A DNA stretch of 61,830 nt, counting the filler, from Squatina squatina (lineage: Eukaryota), in the NCBI GenBank assembly GCA_031763465.1. It is 4 parts of 4 records of this genome, joined end to end, with 100 filler letters (N's around TTAATTAATTAA, not from the genome) between each part and the next. Parts side by side here need not be neighbours in the genome. Positions count along the whole stretch, not along the records: positions 14,503 to 28,330 come from JARFOE010000203.1; 3 more parts are not named here. One strand, 5' to 3'. The translations under genes and the position numbers were made by a program. Below the pieces are notes generated by a model, which worked only from the letters and a program-made list of their open reading frames with translations, was not told the origin of the DNA and did not search any database. Of this stretch, positions 14,879-27,898 are shown piece after piece. The first letter of the stretch is position 1. The number at the start of each line of letters is the position of its first letter.

Positions 14879-14986
14879 GCAGAAATGGAGGACACGCTGT
14901 GCAGCATAGCCCTGAAGTTCAACAGTACACCAAATAAACTGGTTCAGTTAAACAAGCTTTATTCACAAAGTATTGTTCCTGGGCAG
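14879..14986 (+). CDS. OXR1/NCOA7-family LysM-domain exon
   Basis: AEMEDTLCSIALKFNSTPNKLVQLNKLYSQSIVPGQ vs NCOA7 AGNQDTLNSIALKFNITPNKLVELNKLFTHTIVPGQ; canonical splice sites and an 87-nt intron from the previous exon. Confidence 0.92.
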
Positions 14987-15939: not shown

Positions 15940-16238
15940 CCCATACAATGGATGGAGATGAGCGTTCCCTGCCCACTGCCCCATACAATGGATGGAGATG
16001 AGCGTTCCCTGCCCACTGCCCCATACAATGGATGGAGATGAGCGTTCCCTGCCCACTGCCCCATACAATGGATGGAGATGAGCGTTCCCTGCCCACAGCC
16101 CCATACAATGGATGGAGATGAGCGTTCCCTGCCCACTGCCCCATACAATGGATGGCGTCGAGCATTCCCTGCCCACTGCCCCATACAATGGATGGCGTCG
16201 AGCGTTCCCTGCCCACTGCCCCATACAATGGATGGAGA
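15940..16238. repeat. 40-bp minisatellite (cccatacaatggatggagatgagcgttccctgcccactgc), about 7.5 visible copies
   Basis: Near-identical direct tandem units; the array continues into a gap. Confidence 0.95.
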
Positions 16239-17588
16239 AGAGCAAAGAGCTCCCTCCAGGCCATAAACTGGCAAAACTCACCAGGATTCAAATGGCAGTC
16301 CACACTGCAATTCAAACTTTAGTTTTGTGTCCACCAGGCTGCTGGTGGTGCTATTGGACCATTGCTCACAAATACAAGAGAATTTCCACTGAATTGCAGT
16401 TTCACAACCCACGTTCCTACCAGAAGGATACTGCACTGAAATCATTACATAATAAAAGTTACAAACATTTTGTGACTGAAGGATGACCATAACTAGGAAA
16501 TGGCTGTAATTCTGATGAAAAATAACTTTAAACCATTCTATTTTGTAAGACAGGTTTTACATACGAAATATGAATGTACCGAGTGCTACCCATTACTGCC
16601 AAAGCTTAGTTGAAAACCAGTCTTCATAACACACAATAATGCCTCTAACTGAGGTGGCTCGATTCTGGACAACGCAAAGGGAGACTATCTAGTGGGATAG
16701 TGACAGTAATTATTGGTGCATCATCATACAGTTTAAATAACCCCAAAAATTCATTTTGACTTCAGAAGCTGAGCCACATTACTGTGTGCAGGGTGGGAAA
16801 GGAGGAAGAGCAGGGAATTACATTACCTCTCTTCCTTGTGGCACTGGAGGGTAAAACCTGTTGTTGGAGAGATACCCTGTAAAGATGGTCAGCTCACTGG
16901 GGATCACCCACCATGTATCGCCCAGCTCTAGCTTATTCTTCAGAGGAAGAAAGGCTTTAAACAGGCTGGTACTAAACACACTGGAAGGTGATTCTGCAGA
17001 CTTCCAGTTCCTGAGTCCTGACAGAGAGCCATGGGAGACCTGAAACAAAGGAAAATGTAGGATTCTCTTACTTTTCTCTTAAAAGCACAATATTCCGCGA
17101 ACAATTCTGGCCAATATTTATCCCCTCAATCAACATCACTAAAACAGATTATCTGGTCATCATCACATTGCTGTTTGTGGGAGCTTGCTGTGCGCAAATN
17201 NNNNNNNNNNNNNNNNNNNNNNNNNNNNNNNNNNNNNNNNNNNNNNNNNNNNNNNNNNNNNNNNNNNNNNNNNNNNNNNNNNNNNNNNNNNNNNNNNNNT
17301 GCCAACTCTGACACACCGCTTCCCTGTTTACATTAACTATTGATGTGCTCAAATATCTTGTGCTGGGTTTTCTTGCGGTTTTGATTGCCATTCCTACCAG
17401 TGCTGCTCTGAATTTGGCCAGTGGAAGGACTTCCAACACATTTGGCTGTCTAGCGTTTGTATAACTTGCTAGTTGACTATGCTTTAAAATGTTTGCGTAT
17501 CTGCAATTGTAGATTGGAGAAATGCTCTTATTGGGCAGCTAATTTGGCATTTGAGTCCTTCAATAACTGGCTCTTTTTTCCACCGCAG

Positions 17589-19333: not shown

Positions 19334-20991
19334 GCAGAAGGAGCTGGTCTCCCCATTTCTATTGAACTGTGTGTAGGAGCCCTTCGTATNNNNNNNNNNN
19401 NNNNNNNNNNNNNNNNNNNNNNNNNNNNNNNNNNNNNNNNNNNNNNNNNNNNNNNNNNNNNNNNNNNNNNNNNNNNNNNNNNNNNNNNNNNNNNNNNNNN
19501 NNNNNNNNNNNNNNNNNCATACCGTGAAGTGGAAAAGCTGTATAAGCAGCCTGATCAAAAATATGATGAGGAAAATGGCCCTATTCCCAATTCATTACAC
19601 TGTGAACTTTTGTTGGCGTTGAAAGCCCACTGGCCTTTTGATCCAGAGTTTTGGGATTGGAAAACTTTAAAACGTCATTGCCGGGGGCATCTGGGAGACA
19701 AAGCTGTTGAGATTTCAGAAGATGAACTTAGTGAAGATGAATTAGATGGTAATGAACTCTTTGATCAGATGAGTAAAATCCCTGAGACAATGAATGATGG
19801 AAGAGAGAAAGATGGAGAAGCGCTTAATAAAAAGAAAGAAAAGGTTATGTCTGAGAGATACTATAGATGGCTTCAAAATATGTTCTTCTGTGTACTGTGC
19901 AAGAAAGACTATGTTGTAGCTAGAATTGTACACCATGCAAAGACGCACATTAGAGACGGAATATTTTCTTGCCCTGTTTGTGCAAAAAAGTTTAAGAAAA
20001 AGGAACAGTTTACCCCACATGTAAAGGAACATATTAAAAAACCGAAGCGAGAGAAAAAACAGAAAAAGAAATCAGAAGCAGCTGGAAAATCTTTGCTACC
20101 TTCATTAAATGTGAGTGCTCCTCCTAAGCAACAACCTGCAGTAGATGAAGCGAAAGGATTGGTTAAAAAAGAGGTTGAGGAAAATGACTACATAATCTTC
20201 AGCGGAACTGACTCGGTGGAGGAAGAACAAGGTGATGTGTCCAAGCCGAAAGCGGATGGAACCGTTGTATCACAGTGGACAGAAAGTTATCCATGCCCAG
20301 GNNNNNNNNNNNNNNNNNNNNNNNNNNNNNNNNNNNNNNNNNNNNNNNNNNNNNNNNNNNNNNNNNNNNNNNNNNNNNNNNNNNNNNNNNNNNNNNNNNN
20401 NCCCAGGAACAGATTGCTCGAGGTCATTTAAATACTACAAAAACCTCACTGCCCACTTGAAAAATGATCACTTGGACAATGATGAAAATGTAAAGCACTT
20501 CCTTGAAATGAATAACAGGAAGGCGCTGTGTAAATACTGCCGGCGCCATTTTGTCAGTGACTACCACCTTAAAGCCCATTTAAAAGTACACTCTGGATTG
20601 CAGCCCTATATTTGCATTCAGATGAACTGTAATGCAAGCTTTCAGGCCTTTGCTGATCTAGTGAAGCACAGAAAACAACACAAAGAATTCAGGTCCAAAT
20701 GTACATTTAAAGGTTGCAACAAGGTGTTCAGTGGGTCTTGCTTGTTGTATCATCATGAAGCACAGCATTACAGGGAAGCGGCCTATTCCTGCAATTTAGC
20801 TGGCTGTAAGAAATTCTACTTTTCCAAAAGTGAATTTCAGAATCATCTGCAAACACATGGCATAATGAGACTGGAAGATTTTGATGCCAAATTTCTGAAA
20901 AAAGAAAGCGACTCCACAGAAGGCCTGGTCGATGATGGTCCTAAGCTGGTGACTGTGCAGGACAAGCTCTGTCCAGTGGTTGACAGTTCCA
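19334..20991 (+). CDS. RLF: RLF large exon, 5' part (conserved domain and C2H2 fingers; contains gaps)
   Basis: Acceptor at 19332-33; AEGAGLPISIELCVGALR; PNSLHCELLLALKAHWPFDPEFWDWKTLKRHC (RLF-type KRHC); multiple C2H2 fingers. Confidence 0.93.
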
Positions 20992-21091
20992 NNNNNNNNN
21001 NNNNNNNNNNNNNNNNNNNNNNNNNNNNNNNNNNNNNNNNNNNNNNNNNNNNNNNNNNNNNNNNNNNNNNNNNNNNNNNNNNNNNNNNNNN

Positions 21092-21280
21092 AAGCACACC
21101 GCTAGATGTGCAGTGTATTCCGGGTATACTGGCACACTATTAGAAGTACAGTTTATTCCAGGTACACTGGCACACTATTAGATATACAGCCTAGAGTCTA
21201 GTCCAGGTATACTGGCACACTATTAGATGTACAGTCTATTCCAGGTATACAAGCACTGTTAGATGTACAGTCTAGTCCAG
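21092..21280. repeat. 36/38-bp tandem repeat (ccaggtatactggcacactattagatgtacagtctatt) abutting RLF coding sequence
   Basis: About five diverged units are directly visible. Confidence 0.85.
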
Positions 21281-21795
21281 GTGGTTCTTATTGCCCAGAG
21301 GGACTCGCCACTACTACTGCAGATTCAGGTTTTGTCAGCAAGAGTCGGTCTGGATATGGTAATCTGCAGGGTGTTTATTCTGAAAATCTGCTTGTACCCT
21401 TAGAAAAGTTGGCATCATTTAAAGAGCTAAGTGACATTGAGGATATGATGAAAGCAGCTACCCTTCATCCAGAAATTAACAGGAGCCTGGCTAAGCACAG
21501 AATTACAACTAGTGTTGGGGAGAGTTTGGCAGACTTAAATAAGCTTGTTTGTGGGATAGATGGCTGTATTATGATGTATGCCTTGACAAAGGACCTGAAG
21601 AAACACATTAAGATGGCTCATCCAAACTACTACAAGGCTAAGAGACGGATCGGTAAACATCGAGATGTTCTGAAAGGTTCTGTAGCAAATCAAGTCAAAG
21701 TTAAAACTGAAATGGGACAGCGGGCTTTTGCACCAGAGCTTGCATTACAGGGACAGGAAGGCCAATCTGCTGTACCTGTGACTGATGTACAATGA
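21281..21795 (+). CDS. RLF: RLF middle segment with one C2H2 finger (boundaries uncertain)
   Basis: Frame open 21202-21795; LVCGIDGCIMMYALTKDLKKHIKMAHPNYY finger. The 3' end runs into an antisense CR1 fragment (~21778-21832). Confidence 0.65.
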
Positions 21796-22960
21796 CAGAG
21801 AGGTCTCGTTGCACCTCCCCTTTTCCTAATCGNNNNNNNNNNNNNNNNNNNNNNNNNNNNNNNNNNNNNNNNNNNNNNNNNNNNNNNNNNNNNNNNNNNN
21901 NNNNNNNNNNNNNNNNNNNNNNNNNNNNNNNNTTGAGGACCATTCTAATTTTATCTGCACGTGGTTTATTGAGCGTGGCACAAAAACAAAACAAGCTGAT
22001 ATCACCCAAAATAGGCCAACAGTCTCAATCTATAATTACCTTTCAAAAAGGTACAGGGATAAGTTTTTTTTTAAGTAAAATTATATTCTTATGAATAGAT
22101 TTTTTTTGAATAAAACAACAACATTTGCATAGGTGTTTATTTTTAAATGATAAAATAAAATGTTGGGAAAGAGTTAAATTGTGCTTGCTTGATATTGTCA
22201 GTATACTGTAGTCAATTGGTAAAGCCCCCACCCATGGGGAACAGGGACACATAGCACTTGGCAATATAATACACAGCCCTGGATTTAGAGTAAAAATGGC
22301 AAAATGGAGACAAGAGCTCAGGTATCTTATTAATTTTTTTTTTTATAAAGAGGTTGGAAGAGGAAAATAGCCCTCCTGGGAGGAAAATGTACTTATAAGT
22401 TGGAGGTGGGTTATAAAAGGACTAGTTCCAGTCCCACAAGAATCCTTTGAATAAAATGGAGGCTGAGTGACTGAACGTCACTCTCGCTAGAGATGGCAGT
22501 GGCTGCTGTCGGTTAGTTATAAGTCCAGGCTTTGAACTGGATCGTGTGGAATGGAGATGTGAAGGCATAGGACAGAAAGGGGAGGGCATGGAAGACAGAG
22601 TTACAGAGAGACATACAGACACTGGGGAAAAAAGCAATGAAAATCAAGTTTGAGGATTTGAATAGATTGAGAAAGAGATCAAAGCATTATCGCTTTCTGT
22701 CTCTGCCATTCACAAATAATAAAAGAAAACCTTTGATAATGGTAGGGACTTAAAAAAAAAAATTGGCAAATTAAGCATGCCAGCATTTATAATTGTCGTT
22801 GACATACACGGTAAAGATTTGGTATGAAGATGTAGAGAAGGAACTGGGGCTTTACTTTTTTGTCAATATAAGCGCAGTATCACTATAAACAAGTTTTACA
22901 TAAGTGGGTAGGACTATATATGTAATATAAAACTTTCGAAAGTAGTTTTGGTTTGTTCAG

Positions 22961-23422
22961 AGAATACAATGAATGAGTCCTTCACTACTGAAGTAGAATG
23001 TTCTGAATCTGCGGAATCTTTAAAATCTGAGGAGATGCGTTTGAATGGCAGCATGGAATCTAGTTGTATGATGCCAGATAGCGCAGACGATTCAGAATCC
23101 AAGGAAGAAGGTAGAGGAAGCCGAAGAATTGGTGCTAAAAGTAACTTGTGTTACATGTTGAATAAATACCACAAACCTTACCACTGCATTCACAAGGGCT
23201 GCTCTGCGGCTTTCACTGGCCAGCCCAATCTGATACGGCATTACCAGACTGTGCATCAGTACAACCGGGAACAGATGTGTTTAGAAGAAGATCGAGGCAA
23301 CACCAAGAAAGACAATACCAAAGTGAAGAAAATCTTCAAGTGCAAGTTTGAAGGTTGCACCAAACGCTTCCAATATCCAAGAGTGCTTTTGAGACACTAC
23401 AGTGAAATCCACAAGCTCGCAG
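22961..23422 (+). CDS. RLF: RLF segment with C2H2 fingers
   Basis: SNLCYMLNKYHKPYHCIHKGCSAAFTGQPNLIRHYQTVHQYNREQMCLE is RLF-like; candidate acceptor tttggtttgttcag at 22959-60. Confidence 0.85.
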
Positions 23423-23630
23423 NNNNNNNNNNNNNNNNNNNNNNNNNNNNNNNNNNNNNNNNNNNNNNNNNNNNNNNNNNNNNNNNNNNNNNNNNNNNNN
23501 NNNNNNNNNNNNNNNNNNNNNNTACTTACCTTGCTCACTGCCAACCTGCCCGATCTTGAGGCCTCAATCCAGCCAGGTGCATCAGGACGCCTGTTTGGGA
23601 CTTCCCAGGTCACCTATCAAATTTAAATGA

Positions 23631-25544
23631 GGCCAAGGCTTCAAACTCACAGGGTCCTCTTCACTTCCAGAACAGATAAAAGTCAAAAGAGAGGCCACAG
23701 GTGACTTAGAATTTAAGTGCAGTATAGATGGTTGCAGCCGTACTTACACTATCCGCTCCAGCTACCTGCGCCATGTACAAAGACAGCACAAAGCCCATTA
23801 TAAGTCTATATTACTGAGACCACGCAAAAACTTTCAGTATGACCATAAGCCTAATTTGGAAAGATGCAACCAGGGCCATCTTATTGATGGAGACACCCAT
23901 GGCTCAGCTTCTACGGTTGAACCTGATTTAAAGCTTTTTGGGCAGGAGCATCTCACTGATGAAGACAGCTGTGGCTCTGCACGATTGAGTGAGCCTAATT
24001 TGGAAAGAATTGATGCAGTGCATCTTAGTGATGAAGACAGCTCTGATTCTGAATCTGAGGTTGAGCCTGATTTTGAAAGATACGACAAGCGTCTTGGCTC
24101 ATACGGTTCAGCACTGAAGCTTGAATCTAACTTTGAAAGTCACGACAGTGGAGATCTTGAAGACAAAGCATACAGCATGACAGCAGAATTGGAGTCTGAT
24201 TTAGAAAGGGGTGTTACAGAACATCATTCTGATGACACAAATGACTCGGCACCACAGGAAGAAGATGCTGAGAGAAATGNNNNNNNNNNNNNNNNNNNNN
24301 NNNNNNNNNNNNNNNNNNNNNNNNNNNNNNNNNNNNNNNNNNNNNNNNNNNNNNNNNNNNNNNNNNNNNNNNNNNNNNNNNNNNNNNNNNNNNNNNNNNN
24401 NNNNNNNNNNNNNNNNNNNNNNNNNNNNNNNNNNNNNNNNNNNNNNNNNNNNNNNNNNNNNNNNNNNNNNNNNNNNNNNNNNNNNNNNNNNNNNNNNNNN
24501 NNNNNNNNNNNNNNNNNNNNNNNNNNNNNNNNNNNNNNNNNNNNNNNNNNNNNNNNNNNNNNNNNNNNNNNNNNNNNNNNNNNNNNNNNNNNNNNNNNNN
24601 NNNNNNNNNNNNNNNNNNNNNNNNNNNNNNNNNNNNNNNNNNNNNNNNNNNNNNNNNNNNNNNNNNNNNNNNNNNNNNNNNNNNNNNNNNNNNNNNNNNN
24701 NNNNNNNNNNNNNNNNNNNNNNNNNNNNNNNNNNNNNNNNNNNNNNNNNNNNNNNNNNNNNNNNNNNNNNNNNNNNNNNNNNNNNNNNNNNNNNNNNNNN
24801 NNNNNNNNNNNNNNNNNNNNNNNNNNNNNNNNNAGAGGTCCGAGCTTCAAAGAAAATGAGGCAAATCAGGCTTTTCTGCCTAAAAATGGAGGAGTAATTA
24901 CAAATATAGTAAAACAAAGCGGGAGCCAAAATGGTTCACTTTTCACCAAATTGAAGCAGCCTTTGAAAAGAAAAAGTGAAATGGAGGGACACTCACCGAG
25001 AACAGATTCCATGTATTCCACTTTGACACAGGGCTCATTCTTTGGCAGCAAAGATGGCCAACAGAGCCAAAATGCTCAGCAGAAACCGTTTGACTTGACC
25101 ACATATAAACCTATAGGCTTTGAAGCCTCATTTCTGAAGTTTATTCAAGAAAGTGAAGACACTGAGAATGATGATGAATTGTGGCATTGGGAACCACCTA
25201 AACGCTGCAAAAAACATGCTTCACAAAGGAGGGAGTCGGCAGGTGACACTGGATTGAAAGAATCGACAATGGAGAACTGTAAAGAGTACAGTGCAAACTG
25301 CGACAAAAATGTACATGACAGTTTCACAACAATTGAACCGCTAATTTCACCGGGGCCGTCTCCATCTTTGGAGAACTTGCGAACGATACTGGATAAGGCA
25401 CTCACAGACTGTGGAGATCTTGCCTTAAAACAGCTTCATTTTCTTCGGCCTGTAGTAGTCCTGGAAAGGTCTGAGTTTTCCACTCCCCTACTAGAACTCT
25501 TTCCAACAAAAAAGAGCGACGAACTCTGTGTGGGAAGTTCATAG
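23631..25544 (+). CDS. RLF: RLF C-terminal segment to the stop codon (gap inside)
   Basis: FKCSIDGCSRTYTIRSSYLRHVQRQH finger; FDLTTYKPIGFEASFLKFIQESE; C-terminus DKALTDCGDLALKQLHFLRPVVVLERSEFSTPLLELFPTKKSDELCVGSS is nearly the RLF C-terminus. Confidence 0.93.
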   Translation, partial: GQGFKLTGSSSLPEQIKVKREATGDLEFKCSIDGCSRTYTIRSSYLRHVQRQHKAHYKSILLRPRKNFQYDHKPNLERCNQGHLIDGDTHGSASTVEPDLKLFGQEHLTDEDSCGSARLSEPNLERIDAVHLSDEDSSDSESEVEPDFERYDKRLGSYGSALKLESNFESHDSGDLEDKAYSMTAELESDLERGVTEHHSDDTNDSAPQEEDAERNXXXXXXXXXXXXXXXXXXXXXXXXXXXXXXXXXXXXXXXXXXXXXXXXXXXXXXXXXXXXXXXXXXXXXXXXXXXXXXXXXXXXXXXXXXXXXXXXXXXXXXXXXXXXXXXXXXXXXXXXXXXXXXXXXXXXXXXXXXXXXXXXXXXXXXXXXXXXXXXXXXXXXXXXXXXXXXXXXXXXXXXXXRGPSFKENEANQAFLPKNGGVITNIVKQSGSQNGSLFTKLKQPLKRKSEMEGHSPRTDSMYSTLTQGSFFGSKDGQQSQNAQQKPFDLTTYKPIGFEASFLKFIQESEDTENDDELWHWEPPKRCKKHASQRRESAGDTGLKESTMENCKEYSANCDKNVHDSFTTIEPLISPGPSPSLENLRTILDKALTDCGDLALKQLHFLRPVVVLERSEFSTPLLELFPTKKSDELCVGSS

Positions 25545-26591
25545 AACTATTTGTATCTATCTAACAAACTGAAGTCACTATACTGTAACCTATAGAGAGT
25601 GATGAAAGCCGAGCTGCAGAGAATAAAAAGCGGAGACACCTGGGGCTTCCATTTGGGAAGCAAAACCTTGGTTTGTTCTGGTTTTGTGCATGATTGTGTG
25701 TGTGTATACGGAACAAGTATTAGGGTACTTATCGGGGATTAGTAGTTTTCACTAAAAGAACTTGAATGTGCACGTACTGGTGCTCTTCTGTAAGATATTG
25801 TACACTACATCTCCTTTATGTATGGGTTTTGAGATAGTACACAGTCAATTAAATGGCAATTTTTCACAAACATTGTACTGATGGATTTGTAAATTGAATT
25901 GTATTGATGCTTTTGAAAAAACCCACATTGGTCGCCTAATTGATTCATGGGGATCGACATAGTCTTGACAGTTAAGTTATCAATAAAGAAAAGATATTTC
26001 TTTTTCTGCAACAGAGCTTTGGTTAACCCAATTTTAAATTAAACCTGTAGTTTTCTCTGAAATATTCTTGCAATCATGTAGGAAGTAATCTCTAAATTGG
26101 AACAAATACTGTAGCTGATTTTATTCTTGAAGGTTTCCACTTTCACTTTTACATGACTTTCTNNNNNNNNNNNNNNNNNNNNNNNNNNNNNNNNNNNNNN
26201 NNNNNNNNNNNNNNNNNNNNNNNNNNNNNNNNNNNNNNNNNNNNNNNNNNNNNNNNNNNNNNGGCGCCATTGGATATTAAATCATCAAGACATCTTCAAT
26301 TAAGCTGCACCATTCAGCAAATCAGTATTCAAATAAGCTGTAATTGAATACATAATAAGCGAACATCACAAAGACTGGTTTACCTCACAATCCATCTATT
26401 TTGTCTATTGTGTGGTGCACGATGTTTGGGTCAGTGTGCGCTGGTGTTTCTGTGGCACCGTTTGTCAAATTAATGCTTCACTTTCTTCGTCATAAATGGC
26501 TAGATTAGCCTCCGATTCCTTAACTTCCAAGTGTACTTCTAATCCTAATCGGTGCAAGGCCACTGATTCCTCAACCTGGTCACGAATTCGC

Positions 26592-26792
26592 ATGGAAAAT
26601 ATCCCAAATGATTTCACGAGCACCATCTGCAACACTTCTCCACCGTCCTCTGATACATACATGGCAAACAAACCGTACTCTGAGTTTGTTAACAATTTCC
26701 CAGGAACGGCCTTGCTGTTTGCCTGCCTGATGATCCTGTTCTACATCGTCCTCTTTATTCTCAAGAGAAACAGTATTCACTCTGTATTCAAG
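26592..26792 (+). CDS. Probable TMCO2 exon 1 (single-pass membrane protein)
   Basis: ATG in a good context; S/T-rich N-terminus; hydrophobic helix ALLFACLMILFYIVLFIL; KRNSIHSVFK then AAG|GTGAGT donor. Lies between RLF and ZMPSTE24. Confidence 0.6.
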
Positions 26793-27756
26793 GTGAGTTA
26801 TCAAAAGCATATTTCTCAGTGCTGTGCTTGGCCATTCAGACCACAAGGTCTGATTCCCACTCCATGCTGAGGTTGCTGGTCTCAGCCACCAGTTGGGGTA
26901 CTCCNNNNNNNNNNNNNNNNNNNNNNNNNNNNNNNNNNNNNNNNNNNNNNNNNNNNNNNNNNNNNNNNNNNNNNNNNNNNNNNNNNNNNNNNNNNNNNNN
27001 NNNNGTTCATGTTACAGGCTCGGCGAGGAGTGTTCTGAGCACAGACACTGCAAGCCATTATGCGAGAGCTCTTTCTTCAACATTACACACAGGGGGCATG
27101 GAATCTATCCAAACCTGTCAGCTTGAGGGATAAGGTGCCTTCTTCCCAGCTGTCGCTCCCCCTCCTAATGTCACAGGTCATCCCTAGGACGTGGCTGTTC
27201 CCATTCTCCGCTCAATAATTTTATAGATTATCTCACACACAAAGTTGAAAATGCAAATAAGAGCTTTACTGCAGCCATCTGTAGTTTTGTTGCACATTAT
27301 CATCTTAAACTAGATTTGCAGGTACAAAATGTTTGTTTTACAAGATAATGCTATGCACATAATTACTGCTGTGTAACAAAGATGCACAGCTTGTTCAAAC
27401 CCTAGGGCTGGAATGTTGCTATCTCAGTACCAAGGGCTGACTGAACACGTCATTCATCCTCAGCCAGAATGGCAATCGGGAGCAGAATCATTCATCGCCA
27501 GTGCCGAAGAGTTGTTCTCATATCTTCCCTCATAGAACAGTGTGANNNNNNNNNNNNNNNNNNNNNNNNNNNNNNNNNNNNNNNNNNNNNNNNNNNNNNN
27601 NNNNNNNNNNNNNNNNNNNNNNNNNNNNNNNNNNNNNNNNNNNNNCCTGAGAACATAGTGACTATAAATGCTATTGAAACCAGTGTAGCGTTTGATAGCG
27701 TGGATGTGAAGCGCTTGATGTGCTTCTAACTTCTTCTCTCCATCCTTCCTTTTTAG

Positions 27757-27898
27757 GTGTTGGTGACTATCTATGCTGATTATATCGCGCCACTGTTTGA
27801 TAAATTCACTCCACTTCCTGATGGGGAGTTGAGGAAGAATATTGAGGAAATGGCCAAGAGCATCAGTTTTCCCCTAACCAAGGTTTATGTAGTAGAGG
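27757..27898 (+). CDS. ZMPSTE24: ZMPSTE24 (CAAX prenyl protease 1) internal exon
   Basis: [48 protein letters not shown]; canonical splice sites; 142 nt. Confidence 0.96.

Follow-up and report, generated by a model that had tools for sequence, protein, structure and literature searches.

Positions 26496-26792 as the probable first coding exon of a fast-evolving TMCO2-family gene in Squatina squatina

The 61,830-nucleotide stretch of Squatina squatina DNA analysed here (the window) very probably carries, at positions 26496-26792, coding exon 1 of copy A. Sharks and rays have at least two genes of the TMCO2 family, of which copy A evolves faster; the genes are likely arranged in tandem and are likely co-orthologues of mammalian TMCO2, and copy A would encode a single-pass product. 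The exon lies in the second of the four parts joined in the window, which matched G000:C203:935545-949372 of the assembly (GCA_031763465.1) base for base. Its features are as follows.

26496..26792 (G000:C203:947538-947834), + strand: coding exon 1 of copy A, TMCO2 family, 99 codons, assigned by identity to copy A proteins
26553..26612, + strand: N-terminal family motif (Cys20, Trp28, Arg32, Asp39), common to copy A, copy B and a coelacanth DUF5531 protein
26706..26762, + strand: predicted single transmembrane helix (residues 71-89), then a basic stretch, from hydropathy and sequence
26793..26800, + strand: phase-0 splice donor GTGAGTTA, from sequence

The first-pass annotation described an exon starting at the ATG at 26592. 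Its open frame from 26592 to 26792, ending in KRNSIHSVFK and followed after AAG by the phase-0 donor, was seen in the sequence, as was the single hydrophobic helix with a basic stretch behind it (best 19-residue Kyte-Doolittle mean, 2.89; three K/R and no D/E in the next 15 residues). The start was moved to the ATG at 26496, 32 codons (96 bases) upstream and directly after a stop codon. The 32 added codons aligned with the annotated N-terminus of each of the four copy A proteins, and each of these begins at a Met matching 26496; where the candidate has its Met at 26592, the two skate A proteins and copy B carry Thr. Therefore, 26496 is the better start, and 26592 was ruled out as the start codon. 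The N-terminal motif lies mostly outside the interval 26592..26792 originally annotated. Its four residues did not vary among the 10 full-length proteins compared and belong to neither the membrane helix nor the coiled coil. A 35-place pattern of the motif matched, genome-wide, only copy A exon 1 and a paralogous exon (L024), with no match in the control. L024 ends at the same alignment column as copy A exon 1, with the donor GTTAGTTA, and the bamboo-shark isoforms X1 and X2 part right after the Lys that precedes the donor column of 26792.

A 67-residue query from 26592-26792 retrieved one protein among nine candidates, isoform X1 of bamboo-shark LOC122563531 (73% identity, E 2.9e-22). Exon 1 showed 75% identity to the bamboo-shark and 72% to the catshark A protein, 50% and 49% to the A proteins of Amblyraja and Leucoraja, and 28-32% to copy B. 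The orthologues of exon 1 are listed below.

LOC122563531, Chiloscyllium plagiosum
LOC119977482, Scyliorhinus canicula
LOC116988320, Amblyraja radiata
LOC129709904, Leucoraja erinacea

These four RefSeq orthologues resemble the Squatina exon in their start and exon end at 49-75% identity. Frame, start and donor are conserved across two sharks and two skates, and 26496..26792 belongs to a real, conserved gene. Most RefSeq records of copy A read "uncharacterized", and the bamboo-shark model treats A and B as a single gene. Its isoform X2 (XP_043573312.1) joins A exon 1 to the later exons of B, either because the transcript is a genuine read-through or because the model merges two genes. The earlier suggestion that the gene may be too diverged for routine annotation is not supported as worded, as RefSeq models exist in four species and XP_043573312.1, which carries the orthologous exon 1, is named TMCO2-like. 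As RefSeq thus contained the gene and that one name before, the advance is modest; it consists of the revised start codon, the identification of the exon as part of the fast copy, a third last exon and the neighbourhood on the KDM1A side. In its accessible part, PMC12917576 describes Tmco2 as limited to mammals. Among the TMCO2 titles found in literature outside subscription journals none named a fish, and a search for TMCO2 with shark in the same literature returned only an unrelated review.

Family membership was judged by Pfam profile PF15844 (TMCCDC2), whose curated cut-off is 27 bits. Two of the four full-length A proteins passed (catshark, 28.3 bits; thorny skate, 28.7) and two failed (little skate, 26.4; bamboo shark, 16.9). 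All four full-length B proteins, one of them from a chimaera, passed with 35.7-43.5 bits, and the best B E-values reached 4.6e-11. The assignment to the TMCO2 family proposed from the window is borne out by these scores, and so is a family age older than mammals, since shark, skate and chimaera proteins pass the profile; these genes push the family back to the jawed-vertebrate ancestor. The highest score seen was that of XP_043573312.1 (46.9 bits); the later exons of B alone gave 39.8 bits, and A exon 1 thus adds about 7 bits. Neither the candidate exon alone, L024 alone nor L023 alone (the likely last exon of copy A, see below) matched PF15844 at E<=10. A profile built from B only gave the candidate exon 52.6 bits, against 5.2 for the best shuffle (463 of 500 shuffles scored) and -2.6 for the reversed sequence. 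No amniote TMCO2 sequence was among the matches of the protein searches with shark A and B queries, so the link to TMCO2 rests on the Pfam profile, one RefSeq name and position.

The full-length shark proteins matched PF15844 over about positions 43-168 of 171, with the Cys cluster at profile positions 162-169 within the match. This reach into the Cys cluster, the E-values of B and the scaffold position beside ZMPSTE24, which agrees with the human block, argue against a purely compositional likeness, in which any hydrophobic helix with a coiled coil would score. Scores near the cut-off and the appearance of unrelated helical families at weak E-values speak for such a likeness, to which we give almost no credence. 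As in mammalian TMCO2, a single membrane helix leads into basic residues, a helix of coiled-coil type and clustered cysteines; RLF and ZMPSTE24 are the neighbours in the scaffold order. Unlike it, sharks have two, likely three, copies, and copy A has about 220 residues with a longer N-terminus and a presumed third coding exon.

The neighbours of the exon were surveyed in 140 of the 189 open frames of at least 75 codons in the 190-kb flank, plus selected shorter frames; L006, which overlaps the window, was left out. The nearest neighbours are as follows.

19520..25544 (stop at 25542-25544), + strand: RLF/ZNF292-family last-exon pieces, broken by assembly gaps (Pfam TPR_Rlf and zf-C2H2_ZN292 on 19520-20299)
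27757..27898, + strand: ZMPSTE24 internal exon, PDB chain residues 211-257 (PDB CAAX prenyl protease 1, E 5e-21)
C203:957089-957310, + strand: ZMPSTE24 last exon, from the open-frame survey

The scaffold order is MTFR-family (-), LysM exon, RLF-family (+), candidate exon (+), ZMPSTE24 (+), CDC50-family (-) and KDM1A (+), followed by two long frames without a Pfam match (-), HTR1D (-) and HNRNPR (-). From their positions, we take the RLF/ZNF292-family gene to be RLF and the two long frames to be LUZP1. The assembly comprises 1.15 million contigs, and the candidate exon sits on a 642-base contig of its own flanked by two 100-N gaps, while the N-terminal exons of ZMPSTE24 are on unplaced contigs. 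The gene order around the exon therefore comes from scaffolding and not from continuous sequence, and distances on the scaffold are lower bounds. The placement between RLF and ZMPSTE24 on the same strand, as first annotated, is found in the scaffold order but is interrupted by 100-N gaps. We assume that the human order and strand are likewise RLF-TMCO2-ZMPSTE24, that the human TMCO2 and KDM1A blocks lie about 17 Mb apart, and that TEX46 stands head to head with KDM1A. The available portion of PMC2921284 places RLF, TMCO2 and ZMPSTE24 in one human block of about 435 kb, and that of PMC8269103 places human KDM1A, LUZP1, HTR1D and HNRNPR within chr1:23.4-25.2 Mb. In goat, KDM1A and TEX46 were both selected in one breed, with no positions given in the part available (PMC12538952); the parts available of PMC2696593 and PMC10136318 hold nothing on gene order.

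Several other elements were observed in this region. The RLF-family last exon contains repeat-like, non-coding pieces and a stop near 21795 within 21092-22930, which are probably misplaced contigs. Minisatellites with a period of about 40-42 bases, judged by eye, occur at 15940-16240 and at L010:5964-6351, the latter with Cys-rich open frames on both strands. A LysM-domain exon (14882-14986, + strand, 35 bits), with MTFR-family exons on one side and the RLF-family gene on the other, is similar to OXR1/NCOA7 and may, we presume, represent a third paralogue. A CDC50/TMEM30-family exon (G000:C203:958028-958258, - strand), in tail-to-tail orientation to the last exon of ZMPSTE24, may, again by our assumption, be an ohnologue of TMEM30A/TMEM30C lost from the mammalian block.

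Copy B was found in catshark, bamboo sharks, skates, an electric ray and the chimaera Callorhinchus; no chimaera copy A was among the protein-search matches. The identity of the last-exon core was 84-97% among species for B versus 48-83% for A (shark-shark and shark-skate pairs), and by this measure copy A is the faster-evolving gene and copy B its slower twin in sharks and rays. The candidate had been proposed as a TMCO2 orthologue; it is a family member, but the term orthologue is not supported because there are at least two copies and this one evolves faster and is more diverged. In S. squatina, exon 1 of copy B is L024 (84% identity to catshark B, donor at the column of A). L023, on an unplaced contig, is the likely last exon of A (67-71% identity to shark A); its open frame follows an acceptor and closes with a stop codon, and AATAAA lies 41 bases beyond the stop. 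In the tree, the candidate exon and L023 fall with A and L024 falls with B. Copy A would thus run from exon 1 at 26496-26792 through a putative middle exon of about 10-16 codons to L023. No such middle exon turned up in the 200 kb around exon 1, which contain 42 gaps of exactly 100 N and of which 105,248 bases are N. L023, L024 and the further last exon L025 are all unplaced and have no 25-mer in common with the scaffold. A tandem arrangement of A and B is likely: the skate identifiers are consecutive (LOC116988320/321), the bamboo-shark model joins A exon 1 to the later exons of B, and both catshark genes are on a contig of the same length.

The missing middle exon, together with the long branch of L023 (0.71) and a 5' end that differs from the sequence of other sharks, could also mean that copy A in S. 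squatina is a decaying relic that has kept exon 1 and whose product is no longer made. We regard this as very unlikely, as the start, frame and donor of exon 1 are intact and its branch is normal (0.12), L023 retains the signals described above, and the assembly leaves genuine ZMPSTE24 exons unplaced too. An intact copy A remains the preferred reading, and the genome holds a further last exon of the family.

G000:C225561:815-1087, + strand: L025, third TMCO2-family last exon, with an acceptor before 90 open codons, then a stop and, 57 bases further, ATTAAA

L025 scored 27.6 bits on PF15844 over 90 residues, above the cut-off, and showed 35-36% identity to B and 14-19% to A; no close relative was found in the protein collections with queries including L025 itself. 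The last exon of B was not found in S. squatina with A and B queries, the best matches being L025 (35-36%) or L023, and L025 could therefore be a much-changed B exon. As B is strongly conserved elsewhere and L025 is only 35-36% like it, a third family gene in S. squatina is probable on sequence grounds. A search for exon 1 of this third copy with a coelacanth query gave only matches at E>=0.096, at loci that a local profile rescored below threshold, and the genome-wide motif pattern matched the two known exons only.

In the best tree, A lies inside B after the chimaera split with support of 54/44, and an all-B clade was not rejected (p-AU 0.377), so the tree does not date the A/B split. The A branch carries 1.97 changes per column. 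Copy A dates back to the shark-ray split or earlier. These data also bear on whether copy A and amniote TMCO2 are strict one-to-one orthologues, with B and L025 being separate lineages lost in tetrapods. The scaffold position of the exon, flanked by exons of an RLF-like gene and of ZMPSTE24, and the top PF15844 score of A exon 1 with the later exons of B fit that scenario. Whole B (35.7-43.5 bits) and L025, however, fit PF15844 better than whole A (16.9-28.7), and the long A branch, the nesting of A inside B, weakly supported as it is, and the lack of a chimaera A among the search matches also count against it. We consider it very unlikely and retain the likely co-orthology of A and B.

A second family bears on the origin of these genes, namely DUF5531 (PF17671; cut-off 25 bits), which we take to be TEX46; no literature naming DUF5531 or PF17671 was found. 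On PF17671, none of the four A proteins (best, 15.3 bits) and three of the six B proteins passed, L025 scored 15.4-16.7 bits, and a search of the S. squatina genome gave no match among six candidates. The coelacanth protein LOC135352971 scored 50 bits on PF17671 and 17.8 on PF15844, and the B-only profile gave it 39.7 bits versus 11.2 for the best shuffle (426 of 500 shuffles scored). It shares with the shark copies the N-terminal Cys/Trp/Arg motif, the helix and a Gln-Glu-Lys pattern in the coiled-coil region, but differs in having no Cys-x-Cys-x-x-Cys cluster; A is the shark copy least similar to it (BLASTP E 7e-05 versus 5e-14 for B). The ESM Atlas returned no usable match for the bamboo-shark protein and, for the coelacanth protein, only leads below 0.9. 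The B proteins and LOC135352971 thus appear to bridge the TMCO2 family to DUF5531, and a common origin is likely.

The B proteins above the PF17671 cut-off, the shared motif of the coelacanth protein and the presence of KDM1A in the same scaffold block would also suit an assignment of the shark genes to DUF5531 instead of TMCO2. All 10 tabulated proteins (four full-length A, six B) scored higher on PF15844 than on PF17671, A reaching at most 15.3 bits on the latter, and this assignment is highly improbable. With the shark genes placed in the TMCO2 family, the TMCO2 and TEX46 sites would adjoin in sharks, if the assumed human positions and the scaffold are right, which fits a local-duplication origin. 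We tentatively propose, at somewhat less than even chances, that TMCO2 and TEX46 are sister genes duplicated locally in one ancestral block before the shark/bony-fish split (RLF - TMCO2 cluster - ZMPSTE24 - CDC50-like - KDM1A - LUZP1 - HTR1D - HNRNPR). Sharks would keep this block whole with three members, the unannotated L025 being perhaps the true TMCO2 or TEX46 orthologue. If so, it would be a 450-million-year-old sperm-head module, and its mammalian members, some 17 Mb apart, may overlap in function.

The copy A product is predicted to be a single-pass membrane protein of about 220 residues. Three to six K/R follow the helix versus none or one before it in 10 of 10 proteins; by the positive-inside rule, the N-terminus with its Cys/Trp/Arg motif would be luminal, and the cytosolic part would carry a long amphipathic helix and the Cys-x-Cys-x-x-Cys cluster. 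Hydropathy gave no N-terminal hydrophobic signal in copy A. The coiled-coil region and the Cys cluster (near residue 182) are present after the helix in the copy A orthologues and in L023, whose link to the exon is itself presumptive. A partner, a metal or a lipid anchor might be bound by the coiled coil and cysteines, which would face the cytosol. A model of the catshark orthologue placed helices at 69-114 and 122-175 but was weak (mean pLDDT 59.8, pTM 0.25), and Foldseek with this low-confidence model gave no match at E<=0.001. TMCO2 is labelled tail-anchored and SNARE-like in the part of PMC6687282 available; the label does not fit a helix placed before the coiled coil, and it was rejected for the shark proteins, as in nine of nine full-length proteins measured the helix stands ahead of the coiled coil, with at least 90 residues after it.

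By analogy with mammalian TMCO2 and TEX46, we slightly favour a role for copy A as a coiled-coil adaptor anchored in the spermatid membrane, at the acrosome or nearby, that would link membrane to cytoskeleton in head shaping. Rat TMCO2 is reportedly located at the acrosome. In the portions of the sources available, mouse and human TMCO2 are testis-enriched and mouse Tmco2 knockouts are fertile (PMC12917576), so any sperm role may be redundant; TMCO2 is one of the spermatid proteins that decrease in Actl7b-null testes (PMC10652042) and is among the genes differentially expressed in azoospermia (PMC8875138). Loss of Tex46, a gene whose range PMC10957234 gives as amphibians to mammals, leaves mice sterile and with a deformed acrosomal cap. 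If DUF5531 is TEX46, a dispensable gene and an essential gene would be paralogues. The invariant residues of the N-terminal motif are targets for mutagenesis. An N-x-S/T site, absent from skate A and copy B, lies at residue 46 in all three shark A sequences.
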